Under the pieces are notes generated by a model. The model saw only the letters and a list, made by a program, of their open reading frames with translations. It was not told where the DNA came from and made no database searches. Source: Pseudomonadota bacterium (GTDB taxonomy: Bacteria > Bdellovibrionota > UBA2428). From it: a DNA stretch of 64,000 bases. Shown here piece after piece: positions 8,292 to 61,897 of the stretch (positions are counted from its first letter, which is position 1; every line of letters starts with the position of its first letter). Location of the stretch: the NCBI GenBank assembly GCA_018001635.1, contig JAGNHS010000006.1, forward strand, positions 2,905-66,904. Direction: 5' to 3'. Both the position numbers and the translations under genes were made by a program.

Positions 8292-8303
8292 ACTTTCCAA
8301 TAC

Positions 8304-8387: not shown

Positions 8388-8389
8388 TT

Positions 8390-9365: not shown

Positions 9366-10040
9366 ATGAGATTTATCAACTTAAATTTAAAAACCTTTGG
9401 ATTTGTCATGCTAGGCTTTCTAGGTCTGTTTCAGACTCCATGGGTGCATGCGGGAAAACCTTCAAAGTCTCCTGTTGTTTTGTCTATGGATCCTAGGAAA
9501 TGGAATTTTTTATACAGTGTGGGAATGCCACGAAATCCGAGAGCAAGCTCATCGAATTCTTGGATTTTTGATTTCCCCGATATTAGCCAAGGGGAAATTG
9601 ATTATATAACTCAAAGCGTTTCTGGTGCAATTATGGGCACTCTCTTGAGAGCGGATATCAAAATTACAACTTTAGGGAATCCGGTGTTTGACTATAAAAC
9701 TGAGAGTGGAAACACGTGCGATTTTCCCGCTCATGCAAGATTCTACATTCAGCGTGCGTGGACAAATAATAATTATGATCGATGGTGGGCTAATCCCATT
9801 GCTTTCAAATTAGAATCTGCTTCTGCAACTTTGAGTGTGCCTTTAGATCCTAGCCAATGGACAGACACTTGGGGACATCGCGGAAGCGAAGATCTAGCTT
9901 CAGTGGCTGGTTTTAAGAAAGCTCTCAATGAGGTGACTCAAATTGGTTTAACCTTTGGTGGAGGTTGTTTTTTTGGACACGGGGTTAGAGTTGTTGGTGG
10001 CACCGCTGATTTTGAAGTGACTCAATTTAAAATTGAATAA
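9366..10040 (+). CDS. Exported hypothetical protein
   Basis: ATG at 9366 is preceded by AGGAGA, 6 nt upstream. It gives signal peptide MRFINLNLKTFGFVMLGFLGLFQTPWVHA|GK. The track ORF begins at an upstream TTG (9339). No family recognised. Confidence 0.6.
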   Translation: MRFINLNLKTFGFVMLGFLGLFQTPWVHAGKPSKSPVVLSMDPRKWNFLYSVGMPRNPRASSSNSWIFDFPDISQGEIDYITQSVSGAIMGTLLRADIKITTLGNPVFDYKTESGNTCDFPAHARFYIQRAWTNNNYDRWWANPIAFKLESASATLSVPLDPSQWTDTWGHRGSEDLASVAGFKKALNEVTQIGLTFGGGCFFGHGVRVVGGTADFEVTQFKIE

Positions 10041-10042
10041 CT

Positions 10043-42700: not shown

Positions 42701-42969
42701 CAGCTGCCGACAGGGTAACGATTCACCGCCGCCATTCCAGCCACTGAAGACGGATTGAGTAATTCTACAATATGTTTTTTTATGCCATTTAGAAGACCTA
42801 ATTTATCGGCGATGTCATGAACTTCAGCTAAACGTTTATGATATTCCGCTGCGTCAGGTTGGTTGTGCGAGTCCGCTATTAAGTGCTCTTGGCAGCTGAA
42901 AGAGTGTTGGGCAAAGATGAAGCTAAGGATACTGAGAAACTTTAGAGTGTTTAATCTAATAAAGCTCAT
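39760..42969 (-). CDS. Fusion protein: N-terminal SpoVR/YcgB-like domain plus C-terminal YeaH/YhbH (DUF444, vWA-like) domain, with signal-peptide-like N-terminus
   Basis: SpoVR block GVLEFVLSGHSTQHSYYLSNLSPILFMNILAHVYGHNFFHVNSYF (about 42540-42660). A Gly/Asp-rich linker (GDGNDGDGEGDGEPDEGSDEDSD) follows. DUF444 blocks are YIEIPLELYQSLIKDEVELPNL, PDPDISAHVTIISDLSGSM and QLGGGTDY. N-terminus is MSFIRLNTLKFLSILSFIFAQHS. Confidence 0.85.
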   Translation of the reverse strand: MSFIRLNTLKFLSILSFIFAQHSFSCQEHLIADSHNQPDAAEYHKRLAEVHDIADKLGLLNGIKKHIVELLNPSSVAGMAAVNRYPVGSWSDGAAIFNQARNLQGVLEFVLSGHSTQHSYYLSNLSPILFMNILAHVYGHNFFHVNSYFKHKTSHDRVGVSVELDELMTDIGKYEDPREVEDWFFHLLSLEMAQDVWSGAYVEPKDLKADRPIGFNQWRDGLVQTSQSSGKQTVSLLQAFVSELPSDIAPWKLEMAKKFEKMNRFIPGAVNTKLLNEGFAMLVEEIIFSHHPDYARSFGDAAEIGMLAGRVARPSLTNPYFLGLEIWREIREEFNRRPENIKLEGMERDQKFINYAREIINNPNLGNNVMFIFSKLTDQWIKNRHLALVKKFSNEEKFQLAQQGAPLPQDYMDGTLYQVITHDPERIRYQVQQDWNLSYAYPRVVWNNLHNQTDDVAKLSVSNEMGYFTPINRKTVAPTLLSWAKILRKTVELEATLIIDVIKEVTWDWFSFKPKMKVIGYRLARAKIRVNPEGQINVSTLKKMEILDSNSSWEEGIEIHQTPSFREWTPEAAEKSTVDKEIYGHLFKNLREFLIDYHIDQTEVPKGIVSTLKNKEGIEIDPLGSIYKNINDVVGSMALNEVPHGILKALNRYHQKVAERFLAAFSKAANNGGLTRTGSGYSLKVLPEVGGIVFDRRAQNGIKRLLSKVNDLDNNPFVTDDGLLLQPQGLKDKEYYVEKSSNQPGDGNDGDGEGDGEPDEGSDEDSDTGKPSNGQGCGGGDPSYIEIPLELYQSLIKDEVELPNLRPLKGQTEQMRKIFVGSQPLDRKPYVAKKIVRDAIKLGLGVINLREEEGEDTSELDPFEVGVDFLQKKNIHSKNHRQQPDPDISAHVTIISDLSGSMMGYVEKMKEIIFNIRSLLKHKYKNIVFTYVAFDGVAYDFDEAHENDFYKVQLGGGTDYGVGAAKALEVQAKFPDSEYDRFTFMFGDLIADLSDSAQSNIEKVMGNSRFFGTINFTAYSEEDALGQFLIGKAKMDNFVGYQLISEEEEKVNVVKLLRKLFKTENKKKK

Positions 42970-45900: not shown

Positions 45901-48900
45901 TGAACTTTTCCACCTTGTGGATATCTGAATATTGAAAGATGGGGATTTCGAAAATTCCAGGAAGTGTTTAAATTTGGATTTCCATTAGTATCTCTTTCTA
46001 GGGCCACGTTGTAGCGACTCGACCAATGAGTCATTAAAAAGCGAAGCATGAGTTTTTTGATGTTTTCAGGGACAACTATGATTCTATGTTTAGGTTTTTC
46101 AGGTTTTTTAGAGAGCTCACTCAAAATGGGTCTTAAATTTGGGAAAACTTGAAGATCGTCTGAGGTGAGCGCACTCACCGACATTCTTCTGATGTCAGGA
46201 GTGGATCTCGGAGTGTTCGGAGGCCAGTTGTACCATTGTGAGGTTAAGAATCTTGCATCGATTTCAAATAGACCTTTGTCTACTAAGCCTGCTTTGAATT
46301 CATGAGGATGAGCTTCTTGAAGTTTTAAAAGTTTTTTAGGAGTTGTTAGAACAACAGTTGTCACAGATTTGAAGGAGTCTGATGGAGAGCTTAAATCTTT
46401 AAGGTGTCGTCCTTTTCCTTCCGTGGCTAAGAGAAAAAGTCCAGAAAGTTTATGGGGCGAAGAGGGATCGTAAATGTGATCAGACGAGGTTGAGCGTGCT
46501 GATTCGGAGAAGCTTTCTTCATCGAGTTCATCGCCACCTTGGTTTGTTTCTACAACTTCTGGTTCATCTTCTTCATGCTTGTGTTTAGTTCCTTTGTTTC
46601 TGCCGTCGTTCTCTTCTTCATCCTCTTCGTCATCTTCTGTCTTTTTGTTTGAAGCTTTAGACTCGGGATCATTATTAGCGCTTACGGTTTCGATTCCCAT
46701 TTGTCTTTCAGAGTCGCTTGAGGCGTAGTCGAGTATGCTAAACGAGGATGCACTGTCACTATCTTCAGAGTTTTTGCCGTCTGTTTCTAATATGAAAGTT
46801 TGTAAAAGCTCGTCGGAGCCTGCAAATAGTACGTTTTGTGTTGTTGATTCAGAGGCAAGTTTTAATTCCTTGCGCATTTCCCGAGCATCGGATTGATGGT
46901 CAAAGAAGTAGAGTTCAAAATCGTTTCCACCGGGTTTCCATTTAAGGGACCAACCTGTTTTTTTGTTATCGAGTTTAAGGAGCATGAGGTTATAAAAGTT
47001 GGCGTAGTCTTCGTCAGACACTACAAGGAAAGTTTTTTTACCTTTTTTAGAAGGATCTACGACTAAGGAATCTAGGTACTCGTCTAAGAGTGGGTAAAGT
47101 GGTCCTTTCCCCCCAGGTCCGAAATTTAAATCTTTATAAGTTTTAGCTTGCTCAGCTTCATTTCCGTCGAGTGCTTTGGAAAGTGTTGAATTAATTGAGC
47201 GTAATCCAGTGGAGGATGAAATGCTCCATCGACTTCCTATCCAAAATAAGCGACCCTCTTTTTCGTTTTCCTGAACAATTCTTTCTTTAAGGCGAATATT
47301 AATATTTTCTTTTGAGGGAACAACAAGTTTAGAGACGTAATTAAAACATCTCATTTTATATTTTGCAGAAAAATAATCTTCATTGGGAGTGTCAACCCAA
47401 TACAGGGCACCATTGCCATCGGGAAGCACTCGGTCGCTAATGCGATTGGCGGTCACATAACTTTTTGTAAGCCAACCTGAGGAATCTGGAATGTTGTTGG
47501 CTGTGAATTCAATTTTTCCAGCTTTGAGTTGAGATTGAATTTCGTATCCTAGCAGATACACGCCACCCGTGTTCTGACGAGTCCTTTTGAGAAAGAGCAT
47601 AACGTAAATGCTGTTAGCGTGCTTTCTTAAACCTTTAAAAACTCTTACACCCTCAATTTGAGAGAATGAAAATGGAAGCTCTCGTGTGGCGAAGAAAGTG
47701 TTCTTTATGTTTTCTCCAACTCGACCCTCGTAATTAAAAAGGGTCACAAGATTGAATTTTCCTTCTAAATTAGGTTGCTGAGAGTTGTTTGGAAGCATTC
47801 CAAACAAATGGATTTTGAAGGCTTCCAATTGCTTCGAAGATTCGCTGAGTGGAAGATGAATGTCAGTGGTGTATAGAACAGCACGAATGGAATCTTTGGA
47901 AATGGATGTTCTTGAATTTTTCTTTGTCTTTGTTTTTGAGCTATTGGAATAGATAAGCTGTCCGGGAATGAATGATGAATCATCTTTGTTTAAATGCGAT
48001 GTTGAATCAGCAGGTGTTTCGTGTCGATCTGCGGAATGCGTATCCTCAAGATAGACTCCGGTTTTTTCATTGAGTTGTGATTGTTTGTCGTTATTGAATT
48101 CTCGATAAACAACATGGGGGCTCATGATTACGGGAAACTCGTTTTTAGCTTGAAGAAATACTGTTTTCTTTTTGGGGTCGCTTTCAGAGACGTTAAGATA
48201 GGCGGTGACTCGCAGTCCTCCGGGATTTTTTTGAGAATCACTTCTATAGGTTTTGGGCCCCACGCGAGGAGTGCTGTTGTCGAAAACTAAACCAAGGTTT
48301 TCCACATTCTTGATTCGTAATTCTAGTTCTTCTTTGCTGAAACTGTACGTATTCGATATAACCTGCATGTCTTTAACGCTGACGTGACCCATGGATTCTT
48401 CAAGTTCAATCGCGAAAGTTCCCCCTCCAGGATAATATTGAGTTTTTCCTGATAAAATTAAATAATGTTTTTTGTAAACCGCACCAGAAATGAGTTCGTC
48501 ATCAGGGGTGTTGTCTGAAAATCCAAAAATGGGTGCTGATTTTCTTTTTTCGATTTTAGGTTGTGGAAGATCAAAGGACTCTAGAATTATAACGTTGTCG
48601 TTGTTGAAAGGGTCGAATTTGAGTTTGGTAAATTGTTCTTGAACTTCGACAACCTGAATACTTCTGTTTCTGGATTTTAGTCTTAACAGAATGCTTTTAT
48701 CCAATGAGAATAAAACCTCAACAGAGGAATCGTTTGAGAGAGATCGAGTTAAAAACTTTTTATTGTCTTGATCCCAGCTGAGTCTTCCTTTTTGGGGTGG
48801 AGTACCTTCATATTGAAAGGAGAGCCCATCTCCTAAGGGTTCAAAGAATTGAGTGACTCCCGAAATGGCCATGTTAGAAACTTGAGGTTCGGGTCTTTTC

Positions 48901-49844
48901 TCGAGGACATCCACTAAGGGAGGATTAGTGAGCACACTCAGTTTAAGAGATTTTCCAGAATTAATATCGATGTCTCTATATCGACTTGTAAAAGTTTTTT
49001 TATCGATTTTGGAATTGGGGTCGAGATAATCCAATAAAAGCTTCACTTTTTTTAACCAAATATCAACGAGAGGGTGCTCTTTGTCGTTTTTCCATTTTTC
49101 ATAAACTGTTTTTAGAAGATAGGGGGAGTATGCTTTGTCGGGTGAATAGTCGGCAAAAAGTCTTATGAGTCCTTGGTCTGTGGGGTGAAATCTATAATCG
49201 AGGAGCACCGGTTCAGATATTTTAAATTCACCTGTTTCGATGCCTCCGTTTTTAACAATAGCAAAAGTGATTCCGTCAGAACCCATTTGAGGAATGCCTT
49301 GCTTAACTGAGATGATATACATACACGAGTTGTCTACAGGGTATTGTACAATCGTGATGTCTTTGGGGTCCTTTATGTTTTCAAGATAAATTTTACGTTT
49401 CGTGAGAGGATCGATGATTGGGACGGGAGTGGCAAATTTGTTGGGTATTTTTTGGGATTCATTAGCGCCAATAATGAGTGAGCTGGCTGCTTTTTTTTCT
49501 GAAGTGTTTTTGTTAACGATATAAATTTGTCCATCGAGAATGACTAAGGCTTCTTGATTTCCTTGTTGAGTGACAGGAGCTAAGAGTACAAAAGTTTCAG
49601 CGGATCGCTTATTCACGCCAAGCACTTCTTTTTGAATCAGTGGAGTAGAGTTTTCAGCTCCAGTATTAAAAAAATAAATTCCCTTTTTTTTGCCATTGAG
49701 TTCAGTGTTGAATACCAACTCGTATAAGGCTCTTGCATTATGAGGATGTGGAAAAATGAAAGACCCCTCGTCGGCCGCGCGTAAGGCTCCACTTTGTCCG
49801 ACAAGTAGGGCGGCAAGGGCAATATGTTTGAGGAGGTGTCTCAT
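42966..49844 (-). CDS. Giant (2292 aa) protein: signal peptide, unassigned N-terminal region of about 880 aa, acidic linker, and Clp/Hsp100-like AAA+ modules (last one with intact Walker A/B)
   Basis: Uninterrupted 6.9-kb ORF with signal peptide MRHLLKHIALAALLVGQSGALRA|AD. Walker A is FFGETSLGKTFFFE (about 44863-44886) and Walker B is GFILIDDLHKA (about 44641-44665), followed by NISLFVTINPAS. An upstream Clp D1-like block is IIVATPEQIEDLEKDL...FEIVRLEYPSVEHRSNILRNLF. ATGA overlap with the downstream gene. Confidence 0.8.
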   Translation of the reverse strand: MRHLLKHIALAALLVGQSGALRAADEGSFIFPHPHNARALYELVFNTELNGKKKGIYFFNTGAENSTPLIQKEVLGVNKRSAETFVLLAPVTQQGNQEALVILDGQIYIVNKNTSEKKAASSLIIGANESQKIPNKFATPVPIIDPLTKRKIYLENIKDPKDITIVQYPVDNSCMYIISVKQGIPQMGSDGITFAIVKNGGIETGEFKISEPVLLDYRFHPTDQGLIRLFADYSPDKAYSPYLLKTVYEKWKNDKEHPLVDIWLKKVKLLLDYLDPNSKIDKKTFTSRYRDIDINSGKSLKLSVLTNPPLVDVLEKRPEPQVSNMAISGVTQFFEPLGDGLSFQYEGTPPQKGRLSWDQDNKKFLTRSLSNDSSVEVLFSLDKSILLRLKSRNRSIQVVEVQEQFTKLKFDPFNNDNVIILESFDLPQPKIEKRKSAPIFGFSDNTPDDELISGAVYKKHYLILSGKTQYYPGGGTFAIELEESMGHVSVKDMQVISNTYSFSKEELELRIKNVENLGLVFDNSTPRVGPKTYRSDSQKNPGGLRVTAYLNVSESDPKKKTVFLQAKNEFPVIMSPHVVYREFNNDKQSQLNEKTGVYLEDTHSADRHETPADSTSHLNKDDSSFIPGQLIYSNSSKTKTKKNSRTSISKDSIRAVLYTTDIHLPLSESSKQLEAFKIHLFGMLPNNSQQPNLEGKFNLVTLFNYEGRVGENIKNTFFATRELPFSFSQIEGVRVFKGLRKHANSIYVMLFLKRTRQNTGGVYLLGYEIQSQLKAGKIEFTANNIPDSSGWLTKSYVTANRISDRVLPDGNGALYWVDTPNEDYFSAKYKMRCFNYVSKLVVPSKENINIRLKERIVQENEKEGRLFWIGSRWSISSSTGLRSINSTLSKALDGNEAEQAKTYKDLNFGPGGKGPLYPLLDEYLDSLVVDPSKKGKKTFLVVSDEDYANFYNLMLLKLDNKKTGWSLKWKPGGNDFELYFFDHQSDAREMRKELKLASESTTQNVLFAGSDELLQTFILETDGKNSEDSDSASSFSILDYASSDSERQMGIETVSANNDPESKASNKKTEDDEEDEEENDGRNKGTKHKHEEDEPEVVETNQGGDELDEESFSESARSTSSDHIYDPSSPHKLSGLFLLATEGKGRHLKDLSSPSDSFKSVTTVVLTTPKKLLKLQEAHPHEFKAGLVDKGLFEIDARFLTSQWYNWPPNTPRSTPDIRRMSVSALTSDDLQVFPNLRPILSELSKKPEKPKHRIIVVPENIKKLMLRFLMTHWSSRYNVALERDTNGNPNLNTSWNFRNPHLSIFRYPQGGKVHQEEIFGNLDAMRRLSQENSVVLLADASDLLRNERPLVGEKSDIKPFRISDPAAMKKTELLAETASEAQSSANSPNEGSDKDGNSSSRSDIDKPNTIFPHIMWWLASEGRRIQPKLKKQWRLRDEATPSVSEIIVATPEQIEDLEKDLGLESHFMDLQKDFEIVRLEYPSVEHRSNILRNLFYREDIRTLNYSFRYNGNESGAERNSAPFLNITKFLANRIEAVANSLNQEPIEAFVRSYSIFRKSLVDDHKLRRSRVIDENYVERFLAKVFPIPLNYKSLEPEDVLHKIKDTARAAVDLTKLGYAGQLDLKERIFRLILSQTQGSDSSKQIPSSAVFFGETSLGKTFFFEKLIQLLDIKVYDFNRPLDENAQAFFLKVEDLVDKKEEATGKSLYVEDALKHLDNFLSLPLGYRGFILIDDLHKAKNANVLSRVMSYIQNLLNNNLVRVSRLEDKMTIEIPVRNISLFVTINPASNREIRDQYIDDASSIESQIIAALSQVEGAQYEPSILARFSDLINFGDFPREAKASGLISKIRARSLQELTLSNKLILVNPHILSEIAQIFPKAHARNFLMPVTNSLFTEAKDDSLAPAPLYYVTSSKSDTHDSKDLKDDWNVDEWYNDDHQVEEGGSTINSTTLRNQIKKHVVVKPVTFDNLRGRLDFAEFNSNSFRINFYNHFINSIQNHKFFRASLQNEMYYLKPLITGVYLNLRNRPELRFWNLDLSPVRLKINNHSGFLSEFQDLMDAHHNSKPVIPFKLPASSVLESDSLDDFLKIKGSIQEQEGQREYISRLIINIESLMKNLFYKFYQSNGFQESNSQAWLDSMKNSKEVREEFASTTDKIRDLFQMFVSNQGFLNPKLKEVQKGLHRNLSSSDLAIIFLWAIDQAIANLPWDNANVFMMKMLEEIIDEPALSTRAEFAEFAFKTEESPLSPLTVEYVTQLLEGNDLIRDKVPELERNHAGFGDRCEYLLIPEEKK

Positions 49845-49862
49845 TTTCCAGCTTTACTCAGT

Positions 49863-52463
49863 TTATTTTTTGTCGTGCTTGTTGACGTGCTCCACTAAGA
49901 ATCGAAGCGCTTGCACGAAAGATCTCTCGTTGTATCCGTATCTTTCCAAGTTGCTGAGTATCTTTTGCCCAGCCGTTTGAGTTTCAGTGGCCACGGATCT
50001 TCCTTGCATGAAATCAAGGAGGCTTTGGTAGCTGTTAGTTTTTAAGTTCTGACTCATCAACCAATCAGAAATAGCTTTTTCAAGCTTAATCCACATGGGG
50101 AGGGGTGATCCGTCAGTATTATGAAGCGCTAAATTGGCAACATAAGCTTGGAGATCTGGGGGATTAAGATCGTCGCCCCAGCGTTTTCTAAAGGCCTTTT
50201 TAATTTCAGTGAGTCTATCAAAATTGATGGCAGTAGGTATGTCGCCTTTTGATTTAGTGTGGTGTGTGGCTTTAGAGTCTTGCGCTAAGTGTGAAATTTC
50301 CGAAGTGACTGCATCGTAAATACTGCGCACTTTATTGGTGTCGTTAGCAATAATCGAGTTCACATCGTTCATGAGCTTAGGAAGTATGAGCTCTGCTGCA
50401 ATTCTCTCGGCGAGTTCGAGCCATTTAGCGTATTCAGGGCGTTCCTTTTGAAATTGGTTTTCGTGAAGGGTGAGTCTAAAGGCGTCTTTTATTTCTACAG
50501 GAGTTAAAGTGTTTGAATGTCCGGGAGATTGTGCGAGTTCAAGGGCCTTTTTAAAGACCACTTCAATATCGCGTTGTCCAATTCCATTATCGCCTTCATT
50601 GAGAAGAGCTTCCTTTGAGAATTCCGTTAAAGCCGCTAGAACTTCTTGATTCTCAACAACTTCATCTCCTGTGATAATTCGAAGACGGTCAATTGGGTCG
50701 GTGAACCATCTTAGATCGGGACGTGTGATACGAGTGAGAATGTTGGCGTCTTTGAGTTTATCGATATTTGTTTCAAGCGAAGAGCCTGCGGCAATGCATC
50801 CCAAGAAATATAGCGAATAGGGTGAAATATCGACAAAGGAACTTTTGCTAGCGCTGATTTCAGCTGGCGAATCAATTTTAACTCTTACGGCGTAATGACC
50901 CTCAGGGCCTGAAATATTTCCATTGCTGTCGGGTTCTGCATAAATTTCCTTGATGAGGGGTGAATTTGAGCTTTCGTTTAGTGTGGCGAGATTTTTGTGT
51001 TCTGTTGAATCCAATTTGCGTGCACTAAAGTTATTGGGTTTGAGAGTGAGTAAAAGTGCAAGCTCTCTCCATCTTGGATGGAGGAGGTTTTTCATGGCAA
51101 TATGTTGTAAGCGAGATAGAAGAGCGTCGGTGTCCATGCGTTTTTTGGAATCTGCAATGGAACTATAGTTTGCAGAAAACACATTAAAGGTGTCCATCGC
51201 TAAAGCGGGGGTGTCTGAACCTTTGGCGACGCCTTCTTGTAATACAGAAAGTAGGAAGTGGAGAACTACGGGGTCGTTTCGAGTAACGTCGTCCCAAATG
51301 ATCATGGAGCCATCGTTTTGAGAGAGGGGTCCGTTAAAATGGAAGCCGAGAGTGTTATTGGCGCCTTTAATTCTTGCGGCTACGTTGGCAGTTCCAATTA
51401 AAGAAGAGGTGTCGGGGGCTTCTTCCATAGGACGAATAATGGGATCGCGATTGGAGGCAAGGCTGATGTCTTTTCTTGCAATACCCACAAAATTTTCAAA
51501 TATGGCTAAATAGTCAGCTACGGTGAGAGAAGTTGCTTTTGTGGCTTTTAAAATATGTTTTTTATAAAAAGGAATGAGAAATTCTCTTAGGATATCTTCT
51601 GCATGAGAATCGCGGGCGACAGCTTGGCCAGGATTTCTTTCGTAGAAATCACCAATGTCGAAACCTAACATTTTAGAGGCGGTGGCACCTAGAGTTTTTG
51701 CGTAAGCCACTTTGAGTTCGGTGGGAAGTAGGCTGAAGGGACTTCTTTGAAGGCTTGTAACATTAAGGCGATCGCTATCTTTGACTAAGAATTGATCGAG
51801 TCTTTGACCTAATGAAGGATCAGTTTGTTTTATCATGTCCAAATTTTTCCAAAAATAGGTGTATTCCTTGAATAGAGGATCTCGAACTGAGAGGTGGGCT
51901 AGGGCATATCGAATGACGTATTCGAGAACTGTTTTTCCAGTTCCTGGAGGTCCCTTTAAAAGTGGTCCTTTACTTCCGCGCATACCTTGTGCGGCTTCGG
52001 AGATGATTTTTGCCAAGCTCGAGCTAGCTTCATATTGGCCTACGAGAAAAAGTCCGCCAGTTGCGGGCAAGGCATCATGATAGACTTTGGGAACATTATA
52101 ATATTGGTGCTTGTAGACGGGGTCTAAAACTCGGCGATATCCAAAATTATTCAAGACCGCTAATTGTTTTTGATCAGCATTCATTAAAAGTAAGGGATGC
52201 TCTTTTATGAGATCGGGTAATTTTGAAAAAGGATACTCTACGGCGTATTCTTCGGTGCCGGCAATAGCTAGTTGAGCCACTGTTTCGGGCACTAAAAGAG
52301 TTGAGCATAATTTTGGATCAACATGAAAACTTTTAGGAGTGCTAGTTGTTGATTTAGCCGCGGATGCTTTTTTGCTTTCTGCTGCAAATGAAAAATTTTC
52401 TAAGCTCATTAAAAAAATAACGACGTGTGTAATTTTTAGAATTGTAGGTAGGCTTTTTCTCAT
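49863..52463 (-). CDS. PrkA/YeaG-like AAA+ protein (866 aa) with signal-peptide-like N-terminus
   Basis: PrkA-type N-terminal AAA blocks are SLAKIISEAAQGMRGSKGPLLKGPPGTGKT (Walker A about 51932-51955) and DGSMIIWDDVTRNDPVVLHFLLSVLQEGVAKGSDTPALAMDTFNVFSANYSS. A long helical C-terminal region follows. N-terminus is MRKSLPTILKITHVVIFLMSLENFSFA|AE. Confidence 0.75.
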   Translation of the reverse strand: MRKSLPTILKITHVVIFLMSLENFSFAAESKKASAAKSTTSTPKSFHVDPKLCSTLLVPETVAQLAIAGTEEYAVEYPFSKLPDLIKEHPLLLMNADQKQLAVLNNFGYRRVLDPVYKHQYYNVPKVYHDALPATGGLFLVGQYEASSSLAKIISEAAQGMRGSKGPLLKGPPGTGKTVLEYVIRYALAHLSVRDPLFKEYTYFWKNLDMIKQTDPSLGQRLDQFLVKDSDRLNVTSLQRSPFSLLPTELKVAYAKTLGATASKMLGFDIGDFYERNPGQAVARDSHAEDILREFLIPFYKKHILKATKATSLTVADYLAIFENFVGIARKDISLASNRDPIIRPMEEAPDTSSLIGTANVAARIKGANNTLGFHFNGPLSQNDGSMIIWDDVTRNDPVVLHFLLSVLQEGVAKGSDTPALAMDTFNVFSANYSSIADSKKRMDTDALLSRLQHIAMKNLLHPRWRELALLLTLKPNNFSARKLDSTEHKNLATLNESSNSPLIKEIYAEPDSNGNISGPEGHYAVRVKIDSPAEISASKSSFVDISPYSLYFLGCIAAGSSLETNIDKLKDANILTRITRPDLRWFTDPIDRLRIITGDEVVENQEVLAALTEFSKEALLNEGDNGIGQRDIEVVFKKALELAQSPGHSNTLTPVEIKDAFRLTLHENQFQKERPEYAKWLELAERIAAELILPKLMNDVNSIIANDTNKVRSIYDAVTSEISHLAQDSKATHHTKSKGDIPTAINFDRLTEIKKAFRKRWGDDLNPPDLQAYVANLALHNTDGSPLPMWIKLEKAISDWLMSQNLKTNSYQSLLDFMQGRSVATETQTAGQKILSNLERYGYNERSFVQALRFLVEHVNKHDKK

Positions 52464-55711: not shown

Positions 55712-55865
55712 TTTAAAAAGTATTTGGTTTAATAGAAAAGCATGTCATAATAATTTTGCTTAGGTTCATAATTACAGGATTTAAATGATATGAAGTTTTT
55801 CATTAATTTAAATAGTGAAATTCTTTTAGAATTTAAAATTGTCTGTTCAAAGTTTTAGGTGAGAG

Positions 55866-57881
55866 ATGAATGTGGGGAGATTGTTGAATTTTAACTTTGT
55901 ATTGCAAGAAAAGTCATTTTCATTTTTAAAAAAAATTGTTTTTAACATCTCCTGGTGTTTATTGTTGACGCTTTCAGCCTCTTCTTTAACCTATTATTGT
56001 CAGGATGGAGTTAATTGCTATTTGTCCGATGGAGCCACTACAACTTTTCATAATTATGGCACAGACTGGAAGGCTAGTGCTAGCACTGGTTATGCCGGAG
56101 ACATCGGTGTCATTTCGACTGACGGAAGCATAAGAGTGACGTCTTCGGTGGCTTTAGCTGGTGCAGTGGCTTCTATTCAGTTCACTTCAGGTTCTTATAT
56201 AGTTGAATTGATATCGAGCGGAGGTCATGGTTCTGCGTTTCAACATGCAGCACATATGTGGGGTGAATGTGGTTTTGCCACTGAATGTGATAATCCAACG
56301 GAAGCAGGTTCGTTGGATGATGACTTCACTAAAGATCCCAGTACTGGGTTAGCCAAAAAAGAAACTTGGGGCGATCCAGTAAAAGCAAATTTATTGTCAA
56401 CGAAAGGGTTTCATGGGGTTGAAGGTTCTACAGATGGCTCGTCTAGTAGCCGAATTCATACATTTGAAGTTTTGCAAAATCCAGATACGGGTGCACAAAA
56501 TAGAATTCACTCTATAGTAAATATGGCTAATTTTGTAGCCCCCGATGGACGATCGGAATATAATTGGTGCAAGCCAAAACATTTATTGAATGTGCCTTCA
56601 ACTCAACCCATGGGGGATTGGTTGGAGAAATGGGTTGATGTTGGTGTGAATTTAAACGGCACACTATACCCTGATATCATTAGAACCAAATCTCGTTTTG
56701 TACCAGGTAGAGGAGCTCCGTTTGCAGATAATCGATTGATTGCTTATTTGAATGCTGGAGTTTTTACATGGCAAGCATTGTATAATCCTCGCACTGATAA
56801 ATATGTTGACCTTTTAGCTATAAGTCGTGACCTTGGATATTATGATTATTTATATAAATTAAATAAAGATTTTCAGGATACAGCACTTTGGCTTTCAACT
56901 GCTGTAGCAAGCGGAGTCAGTGCGGCAGATATTGAACTAGGAAAATCTTATCAAGAAACTCGCATCAAGCAATTAACGGATCTTCATCAAGCTTTCGAAA
57001 CTGAAAAATATGAGCGTATGAAAAAGGCGACACCTCCATCGGAGCTTGATAATTTTATTTATCAACCCTGGGTTGCTATAGCTACCAATCCTGATGGAAA
57101 TGTTGCAATGGGAATGATGGTTATGCCAACGTCGAGAGACGTGAATCATGTTATTTGGCAAGTGTCTTATACCGACGCCTCTTGGCAGATTGCCAATCCC
57201 AACTACCCTTATAGTTATGTTACTTTGAATGCACATGATTTTTACCGTAATGTAAAAAAAGATCAGGAATATATTATGAATTCCTATGCATTTGTTGGAA
57301 CTTTTGATCGTGTTAAAACCTTAGCTAAAGCAGTCTGCAAATCAAAAAATCTTTGCGGTTCAGATACAAGTTTATTGCAAAAACCCCCTGAAGACCCGAG
57401 CTTTTTTACCTCAGATAGTAACACTCTACCAGTTTGTCGGTACTATAGTGTAGATACGGGAAGATATACCGAACTTTCTTACGGGCGATATGGAAGTGGA
57501 AGTTCTTGGTTTGGGGGAAATTGGTATATTGGAATACCTGGAGATATTTACGCTGGAGGTTATTCCATTGCTAAATTGGCAAATCCTGATGATGGTAAAT
57601 TCGCCATTGTTGGTGCAGATATTCCACTTTATCGTTGTCTTTATGGTCATGCAAAAAGTGGGACTTATTTTACATTTGTTTCTAAAGATGAAAAATGCGA
57701 AGGCCAAGTGAAGCAAGATATTTTAGGATATGGCTGGTCCTCCAATACGGGAGGGTTAAAAGAGTTGGCTAGGTGCTTTAGGTCAACGCCTTCACAGACT
57801 TCGATATTAACTACTAACCCCGGATCTGATTGTTCTGGATGGAGTGAAATTATACATTTAGGGGTGTGGGCTATACCATGA
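55866..57881 (+). CDS. Large exported hypothetical protein (671 aa), translationally coupled to a prepilin gene
   Basis: Hydrophobic N-terminus (ISWCLLLTLSASS). Gly/aromatic-rich. The Cys-containing C-terminal part has repeated motifs (VCRYYSVDTGRYTELSYG; PLYRCLYGHAKSGTYFTFVSKDEKCEG). The stop overlaps the next ATG (ATGA at 57878-57881). Confidence 0.6.
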   Translation: MNVGRLLNFNFVLQEKSFSFLKKIVFNISWCLLLTLSASSLTYYCQDGVNCYLSDGATTTFHNYGTDWKASASTGYAGDIGVISTDGSIRVTSSVALAGAVASIQFTSGSYIVELISSGGHGSAFQHAAHMWGECGFATECDNPTEAGSLDDDFTKDPSTGLAKKETWGDPVKANLLSTKGFHGVEGSTDGSSSSRIHTFEVLQNPDTGAQNRIHSIVNMANFVAPDGRSEYNWCKPKHLLNVPSTQPMGDWLEKWVDVGVNLNGTLYPDIIRTKSRFVPGRGAPFADNRLIAYLNAGVFTWQALYNPRTDKYVDLLAISRDLGYYDYLYKLNKDFQDTALWLSTAVASGVSAADIELGKSYQETRIKQLTDLHQAFETEKYERMKKATPPSELDNFIYQPWVAIATNPDGNVAMGMMVMPTSRDVNHVIWQVSYTDASWQIANPNYPYSYVTLNAHDFYRNVKKDQEYIMNSYAFVGTFDRVKTLAKAVCKSKNLCGSDTSLLQKPPEDPSFFTSDSNTLPVCRYYSVDTGRYTELSYGRYGSGSSWFGGNWYIGIPGDIYAGGYSIAKLANPDDGKFAIVGADIPLYRCLYGHAKSGTYFTFVSKDEKCEGQVKQDILGYGWSSNTGGLKELARCFRSTPSQTSILTTNPGSDCSGWSEIIHLGVWAIP

Positions 57882-58525
57882 AATTAAAAACTAATTATTA
57901 CGGATTTACTATTGTAGAAGTTGTTATGAGTGTTGGAATCGGGGCTATTGCTTTGGTTCTTTTGGCGACGATCATAAACAATGGAATGAAATCTTTAAAT
58001 AAGATTGAAGTCAGTCAAGACCGAGATGAGGCTTTACGTTTAGCAAGGTTGGTATTATTGCAGCCAGGCCAATGTCGATGCAATTTTAAGGAATTGGTGT
58101 TGTCTGATACGGCACCAACACCAGTTAGCGCTATATCTCTATTTGCCAACACTCAAACGTGTGCCAATCCTACGGTAATTTTAAAAATAGGGCAAAAAGT
58201 GGGACAAGCAACTAAAAATATTTCTTCGATGGAATTACGTAAAATGGCTAATTTTGGAATTAAATCTACTTTAGCAGAGTTAAATGTTTTAATTTCTGGG
58301 GAATCTAATCCTGATACAGTTTTGTTCGGCGTTGACTATGGACCGTCCGGTATGAAAATTGCTCGATGTTACTTGGATCACCCCGCTACAGTCTCTAGAA
58401 TATGTAATACTTTTGTTAGCTCTACAGTCAACTCAAGCACTTGCCAAACAGGATGTACGCCCTTTGTTACTTCAGATGCCGGTGGATTGAAGTCAGGAAT
58501 TTGCTTGGAAGCTGCTACATTTTAA
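57878..58525 (+). CDS. Type IV prepilin-like protein (canonical class III signal peptide)
   Basis: MKLKTNYYG|FTIVEVVMSVGIGAIALVLLATII has Gly at -1, Phe at +1 and Glu at +5, followed by a hydrophobic helix. The C-terminal domain contains several Cys. Confidence 0.8.
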   Translation: MKLKTNYYGFTIVEVVMSVGIGAIALVLLATIINNGMKSLNKIEVSQDRDEALRLARLVLLQPGQCRCNFKELVLSDTAPTPVSAISLFANTQTCANPTVILKIGQKVGQATKNISSMELRKMANFGIKSTLAELNVLISGESNPDTVLFGVDYGPSGMKIARCYLDHPATVSRICNTFVSSTVNSSTCQTGCTPFVTSDAGGLKSGICLEAATF

Positions 58526-58533
58526 AAAATATT

Positions 58534-59181
58534 ATGAGAATGAAAAATAATTCAGGATCAATTCTAATGGCGGCGATTTTTACGGTAATATTTTTAGGAA
58601 TAATTGGATACACATTGCCCATTATTATTAAAAATTTTTCCACTAATAGATTAAACGAGGTCAAGGTACAGGCAGTAAAAGATTTGCATAGGCAACTCGT
58701 TTTGATCAGTACCTTAAGATCCAGTAAAGATTGTTGGATTAAGGATGTTCCAGATTCAAGCATTTTAAATTGGACCGATTTAAAAATTTACTCAGACAAT
58801 ACGTGTAGCTCATTTCAAAAATTATGGGAAGTTGGAAAAAATATTGGTTACTTAAAGTTAGAAAAAATCCAATGGAAGTTTAATTCTTTAGTCAATGGAT
58901 TTAGGGAAGGTAAATTAGTGCTTTCAGTATCTTCGAGCGCGTCCCCAAACTTGACCAAAACAATTGAATTAGATCTTGTTGCAAGGGTGGTGAGTGCTAA
59001 GTTTGTGTCTCTAAAATTAAAAAAAGCTCCTGATGGAGGTGGTGTTTGTCGAAGCTTCGCGCAAAATGCTTCAAGCCCTTTTACAATTTCTTGCCCCTCT
59101 GAATGCTTTCCATTTGTCACGCAAACAATAAACTCTGGTTTGAGTAATAAATTTTTTCGTGGACTGTGTTTAAGGTTATAG
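58534..59181 (+). CDS. Minor pilin-like protein lacking Glu+5 (PilX/GspK-like N-terminus)
   Basis: ATG 58534 gives MRMKNNSG|SILMAAIFTVIFLGIIGYTLPIII: a short basic leader, Gly at -1, a hydrophobic helix and no Glu at +5. The track start at 58441 overlaps the upstream gene and is rejected. Confidence 0.5.
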   Translation: MRMKNNSGSILMAAIFTVIFLGIIGYTLPIIIKNFSTNRLNEVKVQAVKDLHRQLVLISTLRSSKDCWIKDVPDSSILNWTDLKIYSDNTCSSFQKLWEVGKNIGYLKLEKIQWKFNSLVNGFREGKLVLSVSSSASPNLTKTIELDLVARVVSAKFVSLKLKKAPDGGGVCRSFAQNASSPFTISCPSECFPFVTQTINSGLSNKFFRGLCLRL

Positions 59182-59263
59182 GTGCTACGCGTTAGTGTTT
59201 GTGTTGATGCTTCAGTCTACTTTAAGAAAGATCAGATAAACTGTAATTGAAATTTAGATTAAA

Positions 59264-60385
59264 ATGATAAAAAAAATAGTCAGAAAAAAAAATGCATTTA
59301 CAATAGTACAAGTTATGGTCGCCCTTGCTCTGGCGGGTCTGTTGATGCTCAGTGTTTCTCAAATTGTTAGTTATATAAATAATGCGAGCGTTCAATCGAA
59401 GTCTACAGCGACACTTAATTTTCTTAAAAGCCAAGCTATTTCTATTCAAAAAGATCTTCCTTCATGGTTAGAAAAACTTCGGCTATCAAATTCATTATTA
59501 GCAAATTGCATTCCTTCTGGAAGTGTCACTCTTTTTTCTTGCCCGCCAGGAGGTGTTAATGACCCTCAAATCACGGCATTGTTTTCAGGACAAATTATTA
59601 CAAGTGTTGCATTAGTCGACTTTTTTCAAAAACCCTTAACAGGTACTGAGACTAGTCCACTTTATTTGGATATTTCTGGATCTCCTTGTATGACTACATC
59701 TTGTCAAAAGTTCTCACTTGTTGGATATATGGCTCGCGAAAATACATCTGGTAATCCAGGATCTATTGAATTTGCCTATAAAATCGTAACTTTTAAAACT
59801 CAGGTGAATGAAGTGCCAACAAAAGAAGTTATTGTAAGAATCCCTGTAGGAAAAAACTGGACAGACATGTCGGGACAATGTCCTCCAGCTGGATTCCCAA
59901 AACGAACATTAATGACTGGTATAGATTCTAATAGAATTCCAATTTGTATCGAGCCACCTCCTATTCCTCTGAGTTGTCCTCCTAACCATATATTGGCTCC
60001 CAATGGAAGTGGTGGCTTAATGTGTGCACTAATTCCACTTCCTAAAATAGTATGTACTGTGAGATCTTCTGATTTGTCGGGATTAGGATTTCCGGGCGCT
60101 ACTTGCCAAGCGGGTGAAGTATTAACAGGAGGAGGTTTTAAAGCTCACAATCCTAATGTTGCCTCGGAAACTTTTAGTAATTGTATAAAGACTTATAAAA
60201 CTCCTACAGCAGTAACTTCTGAAACAATTGGTTGGCCACATTCGATGGAGCCCATTGGTAATCAAATATGGGTAAATTTTTGGAGAGGACAGGTTGAACC
60301 AAAGGCTGATGGTGTTGGAAATACTGTTCACGAATATGATACTTGTGGAATTTCTTATGCCATTTGTTGTAAAATCTCACATTAA
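59264..60385 (+). CDS. Large pilin-like protein (373 aa) with variant class III signal peptide (Ala-1, Gln+5)
   Basis: MIKKIVRKKNA|FTIVQVMVALALAGLLMLSVSQIV has the prepilin architecture, with Ala at -1 and Gln replacing Glu at +5. The large C-terminal domain is Cys/Pro-rich. Confidence 0.6.
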   Translation: MIKKIVRKKNAFTIVQVMVALALAGLLMLSVSQIVSYINNASVQSKSTATLNFLKSQAISIQKDLPSWLEKLRLSNSLLANCIPSGSVTLFSCPPGGVNDPQITALFSGQIITSVALVDFFQKPLTGTETSPLYLDISGSPCMTTSCQKFSLVGYMARENTSGNPGSIEFAYKIVTFKTQVNEVPTKEVIVRIPVGKNWTDMSGQCPPAGFPKRTLMTGIDSNRIPICIEPPPIPLSCPPNHILAPNGSGGLMCALIPLPKIVCTVRSSDLSGLGFPGATCQAGEVLTGGGFKAHNPNVASETFSNCIKTYKTPTAVTSETIGWPHSMEPIGNQIWVNFWRGQVEPKADGVGNTVHEYDTCGISYAICCKISH

Positions 60386-60470
60386 ATATAATTGATTTTA
60401 GTCAATTCTGATTTTCATTTGGATGTATTTAGAATAGCTATTTTTGTTTTGTGTCAAATACAGAGAAAGG

Positions 60471-61766
60471 CTAATTAATTTTGTTAGTCTCTTCTACATA
60501 GGAGAGAATGCTCTTTTTAATTTCATTCACATCATCGCTGTCGACAACGTTGTCTAGGGGGTTGCCGGCAATTTCTTTAGTATTAATGTTGCTTTCCTTT
60601 ATGTAAATTTCCCAAATGCTTTGATTTTCAGCGCGGTCTCTATCGATGGACTTTCCTAGTTGATTGATTTTCAGTAAACCAAGTGAGCCTGTGTGATAGA
60701 AAAAGGCATTGTCTTTTTCGTTTTGTGTTTCGTTTGTAAGATCGCCAAGATTTTTAATTCCCATAGATAATATGGTTTTATGTTTTACAAAATCGGCCGC
60801 ACCTTCAGCGTATTCAAGGTGCCGTAGCATCTTATAAGTTTCGGGATATTTTGATTTAAGCTCTTTGAGGCACCACTCAATTTTGCTGAGAGACATTTTT
60901 TCTTCTTCGGGATTGGGTTGCGGGATGGATGTGATTTTAAAAACTTCTTTTTTATAAAGTTGGAGTAACTTGAAAACCTCAGGTTTGTTGTTCACTTCTT
61001 TTAATGTGTCTTCATCGGAATAATTTTCAGTAGTTTTACCAAAAGGTGGATTTTCTTCTCTGTTTCTGTCGCCTTCTATTACATGAAAGCTTTCATGGAT
61101 AAATGTTTCAAAAAAAATATTTCCTGATCCCTTTGGAAATTGTTTTTGATAGAAACTTTCGTTGGGAAAAAGTTTGCGTATAGGAGTTTCGTCTGGGGAG
61201 TAAATCGGCATTGTCTCAGCGCCAAGAGCTACGCGTAGAGGATGTTTTTTGTCGAAGTAATTTTCGTTAAAGGGGAGTGGAACAGGGAATCTCGCCCCTT
61301 GAAGATAAGTGAAGCCTAGAATCTCTCCCGTTCCTTGTTGCGAATCAATGTTTTGAGTGTTGATATTTTTTAATTCGTAGACTTTTCGGCCCATTCTTTG
61401 AGAGAGTTCTGGATTTTCCTTCATTCCAGCAACGGGTTCTTTATCCCAATTGAAAATATAAAGTGTAGCTATACCTTTTTCAGCTTTTCCAACTAAGCCA
61501 ATGGGACTTTTGCTGAGATTAAATTCTTTAAGGGTAGGGCCCATGTAGGCTTCGAGCGGGTGTTCTTGGTGTTCTTTAAGAAGATTTAGAAAATCTTCGA
61601 CTTTTTGATTTTCGTCTTTATTTAAATTCGGAATGATAGATTTATTGTCTGAAGTTTCTTGGCGGGGAGTGCTTTCATTTACATTTTTTGAGCTTTTGTT
61701 TGCGGTGTGTTCAGCCCAAGCGCTTATGTTAAGGATCAGTGAAACAAGTATGGCAAATAGACACAT
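60471..61766 (-). CDS. Exported hypothetical protein with HExxH motif (putative zinc metallopeptidase)
   Basis: Signal peptide MCLFAILVSLILNISAWA|EH. A single HESFH motif (61082-61096) lies in FFETFIHESFHVIEGD. No family assigned. Confidence 0.5.
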   Translation of the reverse strand: MCLFAILVSLILNISAWAEHTANKSSKNVNESTPRQETSDNKSIIPNLNKDENQKVEDFLNLLKEHQEHPLEAYMGPTLKEFNLSKSPIGLVGKAEKGIATLYIFNWDKEPVAGMKENPELSQRMGRKVYELKNINTQNIDSQQGTGEILGFTYLQGARFPVPLPFNENYFDKKHPLRVALGAETMPIYSPDETPIRKLFPNESFYQKQFPKGSGNIFFETFIHESFHVIEGDRNREENPPFGKTTENYSDEDTLKEVNNKPEVFKLLQLYKKEVFKITSIPQPNPEEEKMSLSKIEWCLKELKSKYPETYKMLRHLEYAEGAADFVKHKTILSMGIKNLGDLTNETQNEKDNAFFYHTGSLGLLKINQLGKSIDRDRAENQSIWEIYIKESNINTKEIAGNPLDNVVDSDDVNEIKKSILSYVEETNKIN

Positions 61767-61897
61767 TATTAATGCCTATCGGTAGCCATACTTGCTGTCT
61801 CAATGGCGGAATTAAATTAAATTTATTAGAGGAAAATCCGCGTTAATGTCTTGAGCTTAATAGGAATAATTAATTAATCTTAACTAAGTATTTTTAC

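Follow-up and report, generated by a model that had tools for sequence, protein, structure and literature searches.

The four-gene cluster on the forward strand of the window (the whole stretch of 64,000 nucleotides that was analyzed) may be interpreted, tentatively, as an accessory minor-pilin "tip" module with a glycan-active partner. In concept, it is nearest to the Kil/Tad "Tip" clusters and to the minor-pilin/PilY1 sets, and it is a member of neither. The nearest relatives of the cluster were from a Bdellovibrionota MAG.

Operon organization and the strain-variable block

The preliminary description had reported four co-directional genes, and the ORFs could be found as described. The first gene, g1 (55866-57881, forward strand), was identified from its ORF and a strong Shine-Dalgarno site (AGGTGAgagATG) and encodes a 671-amino-acid (aa) exported protein (MBP7843667.1) annotated as hypothetical. 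It is followed on the same strand by g2 (57878-58525), which encodes a 215-aa canonical prepilin-like protein, g3 (58534-59181), which encodes a 215-aa pilin-like paralog of g2 with the motif G|SILMA and an ambiguous start, and g4 (59264-60385), which encodes a large pilin-like protein of 373 aa with the motif A|FTIVQ. The g1 stop and the g2 start share the ATGA at 57878-57881, as also described previously, and this 4-bp overlap argues for coupled translation of g1 and g2. The gap between g2 and g3 was 8 nt and that between g3 and g4 was 82 nt, and no internal terminator was found in the g1-g4 operon. All mature proteins had an even number of cysteines (12 in g1, 8 in g2, 6 in g3, and 14 in g4). 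The AT-rich intergenic region upstream of g1 (55712-55865, forward strand), noted by direct reading of the sequence, is presumed to be the promoter region; this placement is inferred, as a consensus scan upstream of g1 gave nothing exceeding shuffled expectation.

The four genes and the intergenic regions on both sides constitute a strain-variable block of 4761 bp (55712-60472, forward strand). Contigs L085, L097, L098, and L099, four sisters at 89-94% nucleotide identity, lack the block and all show the same junction (window 55711 joined to 60469-60473), while contig L086 (99.7% identical) carries it. The G+C content of the block was 0.372 vs 0.403 elsewhere in the window, and its tetranucleotide distance of 0.249 vs a mean of 0.154 (sd 0.024) ranked first among 60 windows. 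Neither repeats nor IS features flank the block. The 4.8-kb block is interpreted as a single accessory operon, probably acquired horizontally, and since it occurs in one lineage and is missing in a ~90%-identical sister lineage, it would be an exchangeable specificity cassette.

The exported protein g1 and its domain family

The N-terminus of g1 is of the Sec type (KK-IVFNISWCLLLTL-SAS|S). No Pfam or NCBIfam family matched g1 (for Pfam, none at E<=1), and comparison with PDB chains gave no sequence-level match. The AF2 model of g1 had a pLDDT of 68, with the core above 85. Two independent methods agreed on the predicted core, which was confirmed as a GalM-like (galactose-mutarotase-like) beta-supersandwich domain (56043-57365, forward strand; residues ~60-500) closest to the fold of GH174 endo-1,3-fucanases. 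Within it, the AF2 secondary structure revealed a helical hairpin (56811-57059, forward strand; residues 316-398) with helices at 325-348 and 353-387 (pLDDT 57-74); judging by their length, the ~300-aa family members would be too short for this hairpin. The likeness to GH174 is one of fold only, and membership was rejected by sequence, with 9-11% identity of g1 to Fun174A and Fun174Sb (PDB 8jd7, 9k1g). The residues reported as critical in Fun174A are D119/E120/E218 (PMC11943901). An invariant motif of its own, GGHG/Q/H/EC-NPT-AG/DD, marks the g1 family. Enzymatic activity of g1 is only putative because supersandwich domains are also found in non-catalytic roles, YidC P1 being an example.

The C-terminal part of g1 (57423-57878, forward strand; residues ~520-671) consists of three ~45-aa Cys-containing, DUF5648-like repeats, for which the AF2 model was poor. 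Residues 501-671 gave no Pfam match to DUF5648 (PF18885) at E<=1, and the link is transitive only: protein P0051, which matches g1 residues 587-654, has DUF5648 at E 2.7e-12, and the region of P0017 aligned with g1 has a weak DUF5648 match. In published work, DUF5648 is regarded as auxiliary to GH70 and GH25 enzymes, and it was described as a putative cell-wall-binding domain in one study (PMC11299179; bioRxiv 10.64898/2026.04.26.720912). The repeats can be regarded as a putative glycan- or cell-wall-binding module.

The family signature motif (56148-56324, forward strand; g1 residues 95-153) reads S-x-ALAGAxAS ... GGHG-x-x-x-Q ... H ... EC-x-NPT(E/Q)AG ... DD, with near-invariant columns at G119, G120, H121, G122, Q126, E140, C141, N143, P144, T145, G148, D152, and D153 in g1 numbering. 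The domain had 198 matches in reference genomes, chiefly in Opitutales and Planctomycetota, and most members were ~300 aa long. Most sequences with an intact N-terminus start like exported proteins or lipoproteins, as assessed by eye over the first 50 residues. On sequence comparison, g1 is a member of a sizeable, widely distributed, unnamed exported domain family. The earlier statement that no family could be recognized holds for the curated sequence libraries only. In ~80 other genomic loci, the domain occurs as a stand-alone ~300-aa protein, and none of these loci had an adjoining pilin-like gene; a relaxed prepilin motif matched in 8 of them, kilobases off and mostly not at an N-terminus. 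Therefore, the g1 domain does not generally need pilins.

The preliminary description had further suggested a PilY1-like role for the 671-aa protein, but neither its sequence nor its fold is like that of PilY1. The PilY1/PilC family is defined by a C-terminal seven-bladed beta-propeller, PF05567 (PMC13190605), while g1 has a supersandwich core, ends in DUF5648-like repeats, and contains neither PF05567 nor a vWA domain. Its gene also precedes the pilin genes, unlike that of PilY1, which lies downstream of a pilX-like gene. Like PilY1/PilC, g1 is encoded in a minor-pilin cluster, with its 4-bp overlap with g2. By analogy with minor-pilin/PilY1 tip complexes, which provide the precedent in concept (PMC13190605), a PilY1-like role as the non-pilin partner of a tip complex is possible for g1.

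Pilin-like features of g2, g3, and g4

The g2 protein starts with MKLKTNYYG|FTIVEVV, which comprises a 9-aa basic leader with G-1, F+1, and E+5, followed by a hydrophobic helix of ~21 aa. Pfam N_methyl scored 18.5 bits (E 1.4e-3), under the cutoff of 21.2, and no homologs of g2 were detected among 5.8 billion proteins. The match to the gspI profile was weak and N-terminal (E 0.042, 14.4 bits vs a cutoff of 44). The Verru_Chthon cassette profiles TIGR02598 and TIGR02599 scored 21.8 vs 51.4 and 15.3 vs 256.5, over the N-terminal 34-50 residues only, and assignment of g2 as a Verru_Chthon cassette protein B/C was rejected on these scores under the curated cutoffs.

Three candidate starts are present for g3 (58534, 58540, and 58567). 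The start is ambiguous because the NCBI annotation uses Met12 (58567), with AGGA 9 nt upstream, instead of 58534; the latter, 8 nt past the g2 stop, is favored because it keeps the alignment with g2 in register and both proteins at 215 aa. From 58534, g3 reads MRMKNNSG|SILMAAIF, with G-1, Ser+1, and Ala+5, and its N-terminus, without Phe+1 and Glu+5, resembles the PilX/GspK style. Smith-Waterman alignment of g2 and g3 without the N-terminal helix scored 62 vs 30.4 +/- 4.9, a score reached by 0/1000 shuffles, and a C-terminal motif, C-x3-C-x-PFVT ... G-x-CL, is common to both. This significant alignment marks g3 as a degenerate paralog of g2.

The g4 protein starts with MIKKIVRKKNA|FTIVQVM, with Ala-1 and Gln+5, and continues for ~200 residues into a Pro-rich linker, a Cys-bounded loop, and a Cys-rich C-terminal module. 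Pfam N_methyl gave E 0.042 (13.9 bits, under the 21.2 cutoff), and NF007848 matched residues 5-65 (E 1.6e-4, 21 bits vs a cutoff of 120). A full-length ortholog with 40% identity could be found in a Bdellovibrionota MAG (locus L004, 15245-16459). It starts with G|FSIVQVMVA, so Gln+5 is kept in both proteins while the ortholog has Gly-1, and it carries the Cys-bounded loop SCP-N--L-PNGSGG--CA twice.

The N-terminal motifs of the preliminary description agree with these sequences: the canonical prepilin G|FTIVE is seen in g2, A|FTIVQ at the g4 N-terminus, and G|SILMA without Glu+5 fits the g3 start at 58534, ambiguous as that start is. On the suggested inspection for class III signals, g2 is complete for all elements, g4 departs from them by Ala-1 and Gln+5, and g3 keeps Gly-1 and departs by Ser+1 and Ala+5. 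In each of the three proteins, the N-terminus holds the only clear hydrophobic segment; a second hydrophobic window in g4 near residue 103 was marginal (1.64 vs a cut-off of 1.6). A relaxed prepilin regular expression applied to the six-frame translation of the 64 kb matched g2 and g4 only, and N_methyl at E<=1e-3 was reached by none of 37 further ORFs (>=120 aa) scanned in the window. The N_methyl and machinery Pfam scans covered all but five ORFs of this size, namely four beside the cluster, with precomputed Pfam assignments of DUF3299, ZrgA, ABC ATPase, and FtsX, and an M28 peptidase (32003-33211). In the remaining large ORFs of the window, these scans revealed no T2SSE ATPase, platform protein, secretin, or A24 peptidase, in agreement with the preliminary description, and no Tad genes were present in the window. 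Therefore, the term "orphan" holds for this window.

The globular parts of g2-g4 matched no pilin, pseudopilin, or TadE/F/G profile in Pfam or NCBIfam, and neither TadE nor any other Tad-type profile gave a match at E<=1. PilX_N and GspK had no Pfam match in g2-g4, and no FimU/PilV/PilW/PilX or GspH/I/J/K profile exceeded its cutoff, the matches being N-terminal only. The profile search proposed earlier for these families and PilY1 thus reached no family, with PF05567 absent, and the cluster does not correspond to a standard annotated T2SS pseudopilin operon. For g2-g4, no PDB sequence matches were obtained. An AF2 single-sequence model of concatenated g2+g3+g4 showed long N-terminal helices and was unreliable (mean pLDDT 35).

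Related loci, known systems, and competing interpretations

The pairing of a large exported protein with pilin-like genes, as claimed previously, is borne out by the ATGA overlap and by its recurrence in locus L002. There, downstream of a distant g1 homolog (a lipoprotein with 29% identity), a 363-aa G|FSIIE pilin-like gene, which reaches the N_methyl and TIGR02532 cutoffs, and a 142-aa G|FSIMAA gene follow within 48 nt. In L004, a distance of 2.7 kb separates the sole g4 ortholog detected from two g1-domain paralogs, one of which has a TadA/VirB11-type ATPase 327 nt upstream; the ortholog itself belongs to another transcription unit, next to an ECF sigma factor. The linkage of g1 with pilins rests on three loci, and the L004 genes are not in one operon.

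Like the T4aP sets (fimU-pilVWXY1E; Myxococcus clusters 1-3; PMC13190605, PMC8833165), the cluster combines pilin-like genes with a large exported non-pilin, and, as in PilX, Glu+5 is missing from one subunit. In T4aP sets, some PilY1 N-terminal domains bind sugar (DUF4114). The cluster differs from these sets in that its pilin-like genes number three instead of four or five and in that it has no FimU/PilV/W/X match. Orphan "Tip" clusters of three disulfide-rich pilins, one of them large and modular, have been reported from predatory bacteria, with structural analogs in Bdellovibrio (PMC12075869). The present cluster resembles these Kil/Tad Tips (kilL-kilM-kilN; Myxococcus and other predators) in its short, intermediate, and large modular pilin-like genes, the variable distal domain on the large subunit, the many cysteines, the location away from the machinery, and the occurrence of several interchangeable or variable sets. 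The TadA/VirB11-type ATPase in L004 is a further likeness. Unlike Kil/Tad, the N-terminal motif is G|F-T-I-V-E, as for PilD-class peptidases, and not of the Flp/TadE type, and the large non-pilin partner g1 is additional; the section on the four Myxococcus tip clusters makes no mention of such a partner. Membership of g2-g4 in TadE/F/G-KilL/M/N was rejected, with no profile match and no Tad genes in the window, and the resemblance is in the three-subunit plan only.

GspK, the largest subunit of the T2SS minor pseudopilin cap, lacks Glu+5. The cluster is similar to the GspI-GspJ-GspK (plus GspH) cap in its small subunit set and in its largest subunit, g4, with Gln+5 and not Glu+5; it differs in that two of three subunits lack Glu+5, no gsp genes lie nearby, and the GspI match is weak and N-terminal. 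Modular type IV pilins consist of a pilin domain and a grafted functional module, and g4, with its ~200 residues, Pro-rich linker, and Cys-rich module, may resemble them in layout. Unlike in modular pilins, the g4 module belongs to no recognizable family, and its pilin domain is putative.

As a tip module, g2-g4 would be processed by a prepilin peptidase encoded elsewhere, and their N-terminal helices would bundle into a small minor-pilin priming/tip complex capping a type IV filament (T4aP, T2SS-like, or Tad/Kil-like), with the motor and channel outside the window. The Sec-exported, disulfide-rich, ~70-kDa g1 would be produced in fixed proportion to g2 via translational coupling, dock on the g2-g4 complex, and be displayed at the fibre end. 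There, it may bind, and possibly cleave, the surface polysaccharide of a prey cell, capsule, EPS, or particle. It would then fill the job of PilY1 in T4aP tips, or of the KilN distal domain in Kil "Tips", with an unrelated carbohydrate-active fold. A more specific version, in which a horizontally exchangeable cassette arms the filament with a catalytic glycan-cleaving enzyme of an unnamed supersandwich glycosidase-/lyase-like family, giving an "enzymatic pilus tip" that would recognize a polysaccharide layer of prey or substrate and digest it locally, and two non-Glu5 subunits sit in an unusual three-member cap, is improbable.

The genes may have been acquired together without working together, g1 being an independent Sec-secreted glycan-active or -binding protein and g2-g4 a spare set of minor pilins unrelated to it, on the same island. 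This is somewhat unlikely: the pilin-free ~80 loci and the separate transcription unit of the g4 ortholog in L004 favor it, whereas the coupled translation suggested by the ATGA overlap, the recurrence of the pairing in L002 at only 29% identity, and the position of the single g4 ortholog within 3 kb of g1 paralogs count against it. Unlikely, too, is a dedicated secretion cassette, in which g2-g4 would serve a T2SS-like piston as pseudopilins and g1 would be its soluble glycan-degrading cargo, released to the medium or cell surface. It would suit the appearance of g1, that of a secreted CAZyme bearing a binding module, the surface retention implied by the lipoprotein homolog in L002, the pseudopilin-like best full-family hints for g2 (weak GspI and the Verru_Chthon cassette), and a subunit set, three with two lacking Glu+5, nearer to the GspI/J/K cap than to the five-member T4aP set. 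Against it, the window contains neither a GspG-like major pseudopilin gene nor any T2SS gene, and T2SS substrates are not normally translationally coupled with minor pseudopilins.

It is very improbable that g2-g4 are not pilins at all and are instead N-anchored or Sec-cleaved periplasmic or envelope proteins with prepilin-resembling N-termini. The N_methyl scores under the Pfam gathering cutoff, the deviating residues of g3 and g4, and the lack of a pilin fold in the unreliable AF2 model are in line with such proteins, but g2 shows a full class III signal including a 21-aa hydrophobic stretch, the g4 ortholog has a canonical G|FSIVQ, L002 has the same motifs with its 363-aa gene above the cutoffs, and the rest of the 64 kb is free of the motif.

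Whatever the answer for the pilins, the g1 family can reasonably be put forward as a candidate new family of carbohydrate-active proteins. If g1-g4 work together, they would represent a tip/priming module with a carbohydrate-active non-pilin partner, in place of a PilY1 propeller or a KilN-type pilin domain, and would add to the known ways to functionalize type IV filaments. The presence and absence of the block between ~90%-identical lineages would, if this is true, be a natural example of tip-specificity exchange.

Gene organization and genomic setting of the cluster

Four co-directional genes, g1 to g4, were located on the forward strand, and an ORF check confirmed the anatomy given in the preliminary description. 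The first gene, g1 (55866-57881), encodes a 671-aa protein with a Sec-type N-terminus and is preceded by a strong Shine-Dalgarno site. The g1 stop and the g2 start share the ATGA at 57878-57881. The g2 protein begins with MKLKTNYYG/FTIVEVV (the slash separates positions -1 and +1). A gap of 8 nt separates the g2 stop from g3, whose protein begins with MRMKNNSG/SILMAAIF; the g3 start is ambiguous, the NCBI start being Met12 with AGGA upstream. The last gene, g4 (59264-60385), begins with MIKKIVRKKNA/FTIVQVM. Exact protein look-up placed the window on the 80-kb contig JAHZTO010000398.1 of MAG GCA_020049755.1, which is labelled "Proteobacteria bacterium", and all four genes are annotated as hypothetical by NCBI. 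Promoter and terminator scans revealed nothing above shuffled expectation. The reported lack of assembly machinery was upheld by Pfam analysis, which detected no secretion ATPase, platform protein, secretin or prepilin peptidase in 37 of the 42 remaining ORFs with a length of at least 120 aa; the five ORFs outside those scans were one M28 peptidase and the four genes directly upstream of the cluster, which precomputed Pfam results identify as DUF3299, ZrgA, an ABC ATPase and FtsX.

The cluster is carried on a block of 4761 bp (55712-60472). In four sister-lineage contigs with 89-94% nucleotide identity (L085, L097 of MAG GCA_964609695.1, L098 and L099), the FtsX stop is joined directly to the stop of g5, the next gene on the reverse strand, with ~20 bp in place of the block and an identical junction in all four. 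Both g4 and g5 are present on a 99.7%-identical contig of a sister assembly. The G+C content of the block is 0.372 vs 0.403, its GC3 is also lower, and in tetranucleotide composition it deviates more than any other segment of the same size, lying ~4 sd off the mean. No direct or inverted terminal repeats, adjacent tRNA or integrase could be found at its borders. Horizontal gain of the block is the simpler reading, and its loss in the sister lineage is a possible alternative.

The neighbouring g5 (60471-61766) encodes an exported hypothetical protein of 431 aa in which the HExxH motif takes the form HESFH; the gene is conserved in the sister lineage, with variable DNA on either side. The interval between g5 and a 243-aa gene is only ~30 bp long in the window (61825-61855) but holds two additional genes, of 306 aa and 148/220 aa, in the sister contigs. 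Further genes of note lie on the reverse strand. Three large consecutive genes at 39760-52463 encode an 866-aa PrkA-like protein, a 2292-aa protein with a weak AAA_22 match only, and a 1069-aa protein with SpoVR and DUF444 matches, both domains in one protein. A 568-aa ORF (6087-7793) joins NADH-dehydrogenase 20-kDa (NuoB-type) and 49-kDa (NuoD-type) domains in one polypeptide, and a 978-aa protein (10043-12979) unites a beta-lactamase-fold domain with DUF5060 and a collagen-binding-like C-terminus.

Features of the pilin-like proteins

Hydrophobicity analysis revealed one clear segment, N-terminal in each case, in g2, g3 and g4, with an additional marginal window near residue 103 of g4. When all six frames of the window were translated and scanned with a relaxed prepilin pattern, g2 and g4 alone matched. 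Pfam and NCBIfam searches with g1 to g4 produced only sub-threshold N-terminal matches: Pfam N_methyl fell below the cutoff for g2 (E 1.4e-3) and g4 (E 0.042), and other weak matches among g2 to g4 were to Verru_Chthon cassette B/C, GspI and the prepilin-peptidase-dependent protein NF007848. Profile searches did not place the proteins in FimU/PilVWX or GspH-K, the families of the operons with which the cluster had been compared, at the sequence level. PDB sequence searches with g2, g3 and g4 gave no matches. A word-indexed search of 5.8 billion proteins retrieved zero homologs of g2 and, for g4, its own cluster alone; this search overlooked a full-length g4 ortholog with 40% identity on L004 (15245-16459), a contig of a Bdellovibrionota MAG. 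A metagenome scan using the g4 alignment produced 149 pattern matches, none of which was confirmed. The AF2 model of g2, g3 and g4 as one chain, built with no alignment, had a pLDDT of 35 and was unusable for judging the pilin fold.

The g2 and g3 proteins are paralogs of the same length, and their alignment stays in register from Met1 onward. It scored 62 when the N-terminal helix was excluded, against 30.4 +/- 4.9 in 1000 shuffles, and a C-terminal motif, C-x3-C-x-PFVT...G-x-CL, is common to both. This paralogy indicates that g3 descends from a canonical prepilin-type gene, with loss of Phe+1 and Glu+5. The L004 ortholog of g4 begins with RMKG/FSIVQVMVA, which has the canonical Gly-1 and, as in g4, Gln at +5; thus the Glu-to-Gln change in g4 is conserved and no sequencing accident. 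Cysteine counts are even in all mature proteins (g1, 12; g2, 8; g3, 6; g4, 14), which fits disulfide-bonded extracytoplasmic proteins. One copy of a Cys-bounded loop, SCP-N--L-PNGSGG--CA, is present in g4 and two in the L004 ortholog, a difference which suggests that the pilin-like part and the C-terminal module are joined by a linker with a variable number of repeats.

The exported domain family represented by g1

A HMMER search of 1.84 billion representatives (E<=1e-3) retrieved 37 proteins including the g1 query. All matches but two shared g1 residues ~80-310 only; the two exceptions, P0047 and P0051, matched the C-terminal repeats. The shared region contains a near-invariant motif (S-x-ALAGAxAS, GGHG-xxx-Q, H, EC-x-NPT(E/Q)AG, DD), located at 56148-56324 in the window and found in the family loci L005-L084. 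Neither g1 nor its family profile had a Pfam, NCBIfam or meaningful PDB sequence match, and the word-indexed search of 5.8 billion proteins gave one remote match. Scanning GTDB species genomes with ECxNPTEAG yielded 198 relatives. Most are stand-alone proteins of ~300 aa in Opitutales, other Verrucomicrobiota and Planctomycetota; Bacteroidales contribute a few, and one Bdellovibrionota MAG is also represented. Judged by eye from the first 50 residues, most relatives with an intact N-terminus appear exported or lipidated. In one Opitutales locus, a PL10 pectate lyase lies ~770 bp from the family gene.

The AF2 model of g1, built on the family alignment, was confident at residues ~80-155, 190-320 and 400-500, and Foldseek matched it to the GH174 endo-fucanase structure 8jd7 (E 8e-7), then to the YidC P1 domain and GalM. 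The C-terminal 150 residues consist of three Cys-containing repeats of ~45 aa, which match DUF5648-carrying proteins. DUF5648, a (beta3-alpha)3 auxiliary domain, has been described on GH70 enzymes and on a single GH25 endolysin, and in one study it is given as a putative cell-wall-binding domain (PMC11299179; bioRxiv 10.64898/2026.04.26.720912). At the sequence level, g1 could be assigned to neither GH174 nor DUF5648. Based on the predicted fold and the DUF5648-type repeats, g1 is built like a secreted carbohydrate-active protein, unlike PilY1, which is defined by a C-terminal seven-bladed propeller (PMC13190605). The PilY1 analogy proposed for the 671-aa protein fails at the level of fold, though it may survive as a functional one. 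The N-terminal domain of g1 represents an unnamed, GH174-like exported domain family without a Pfam or NCBIfam model.

Linkage of g1 to pilin-like genes and its interpretation

Two further loci speak for the association. The 5-kb contig L002 encodes an 825-aa homolog of g1 that shares 29% identity with it and carries a lipobox; 48 nt downstream comes a 363-aa G/FSIIE gene, which a 142-aa G/FSIMAA gene overlaps. The 363-aa gene reached the N_methyl and TIGR02532 cutoffs; it was rejected as a g4 homolog, since profile comparison supports the N-terminal helix only (probability 16%). L004 carries g1-domain paralogs of 791 and 559 aa 2.7 kb upstream of the g4 ortholog; the first of them is preceded, at a distance of 327 nt, by a gene for a TadA/VirB11-type ATPase. 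The L004 contig (MAG JTS-AC59) runs from this lone ATPase (6594-7673) through the two paralogs (within 8001-12584), a Ser/Thr kinase and an ECF sigma factor to the g4 ortholog. Tandem repeats of ~120 aa are N-terminal in one L004 paralog and also occur in P0017, another g1-related protein. Against the association, no adjoining pilin-like gene was found in ~80 other genomic loci with the g1 domain; in the 8 of these where the relaxed prepilin motif fired, the hits lay kilobases away from the family gene and in most cases did not coincide with the start of an ORF. A metagenome scan with the g1-domain alignment gave 8 short contigs, none with pilin neighbours. The g1-pilin association looks specific to this lineage; the domain family as a whole does not share it. 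A predatory context is putative: housekeeping proteins in 90% clusters were labelled no more finely than "Proteobacteria/Pseudomonadota bacterium", and it is only the closest relatives of g1 and g4 that come from a Bdellovibrionota MAG.

In the best-supported reading, the four genes form an accessory operon for a small complex of minor pilins or pseudopilins and for its glycan-binding, possibly glycan-cleaving, partner g1. The subunits of the complex would be a canonical protein, its degenerate paralog and a large modular protein without Glu+5. Filament machinery encoded elsewhere would serve the complex, which would present or escort g1. Mere co-location of g1 and the pilin-like genes on the island is unlikely: the ATGA overlap between g1 and g2 speaks for linkage, whereas the separate transcription units of the g1 paralogs and the g4 ortholog in L004 speak against it. 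A T2SS-like cassette with g1 as its cargo is a somewhat weaker candidate; the sub-threshold GspI match is in keeping with it, and the standard T2SS pseudopilin operon was rejected, as no Gsp family profile reached its cutoff and no gsp gene lies nearby. That g2 to g4 are non-pilin signal-anchor proteins is improbable and the least likely of the three. The mechanism proposed for the accessory operon builds on linkage in three loci and on putative pilin folds.

The published concept that comes closest is that of the Kil/Tad "Tip" clusters in predatory bacteria, interchangeable orphan loci for three minor pilins that include a large modular one and have many disulfides (PMC12075869), followed by minor-pilin/PilY1 complexes (PMC13190605, PMC8833165). 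When tested at the sequence level, g2 to g4 did not belong to TadE/F/G, nor g1 to PilY1. Since none of the PilY1, FimU/PilVWX, GspH-K, TadE/F/G, GH174 or DUF5648 families could be assigned, the likeness to known systems is one of architecture and not of family. The cluster is best classed as a variation on the minor-pilin tip-module theme.
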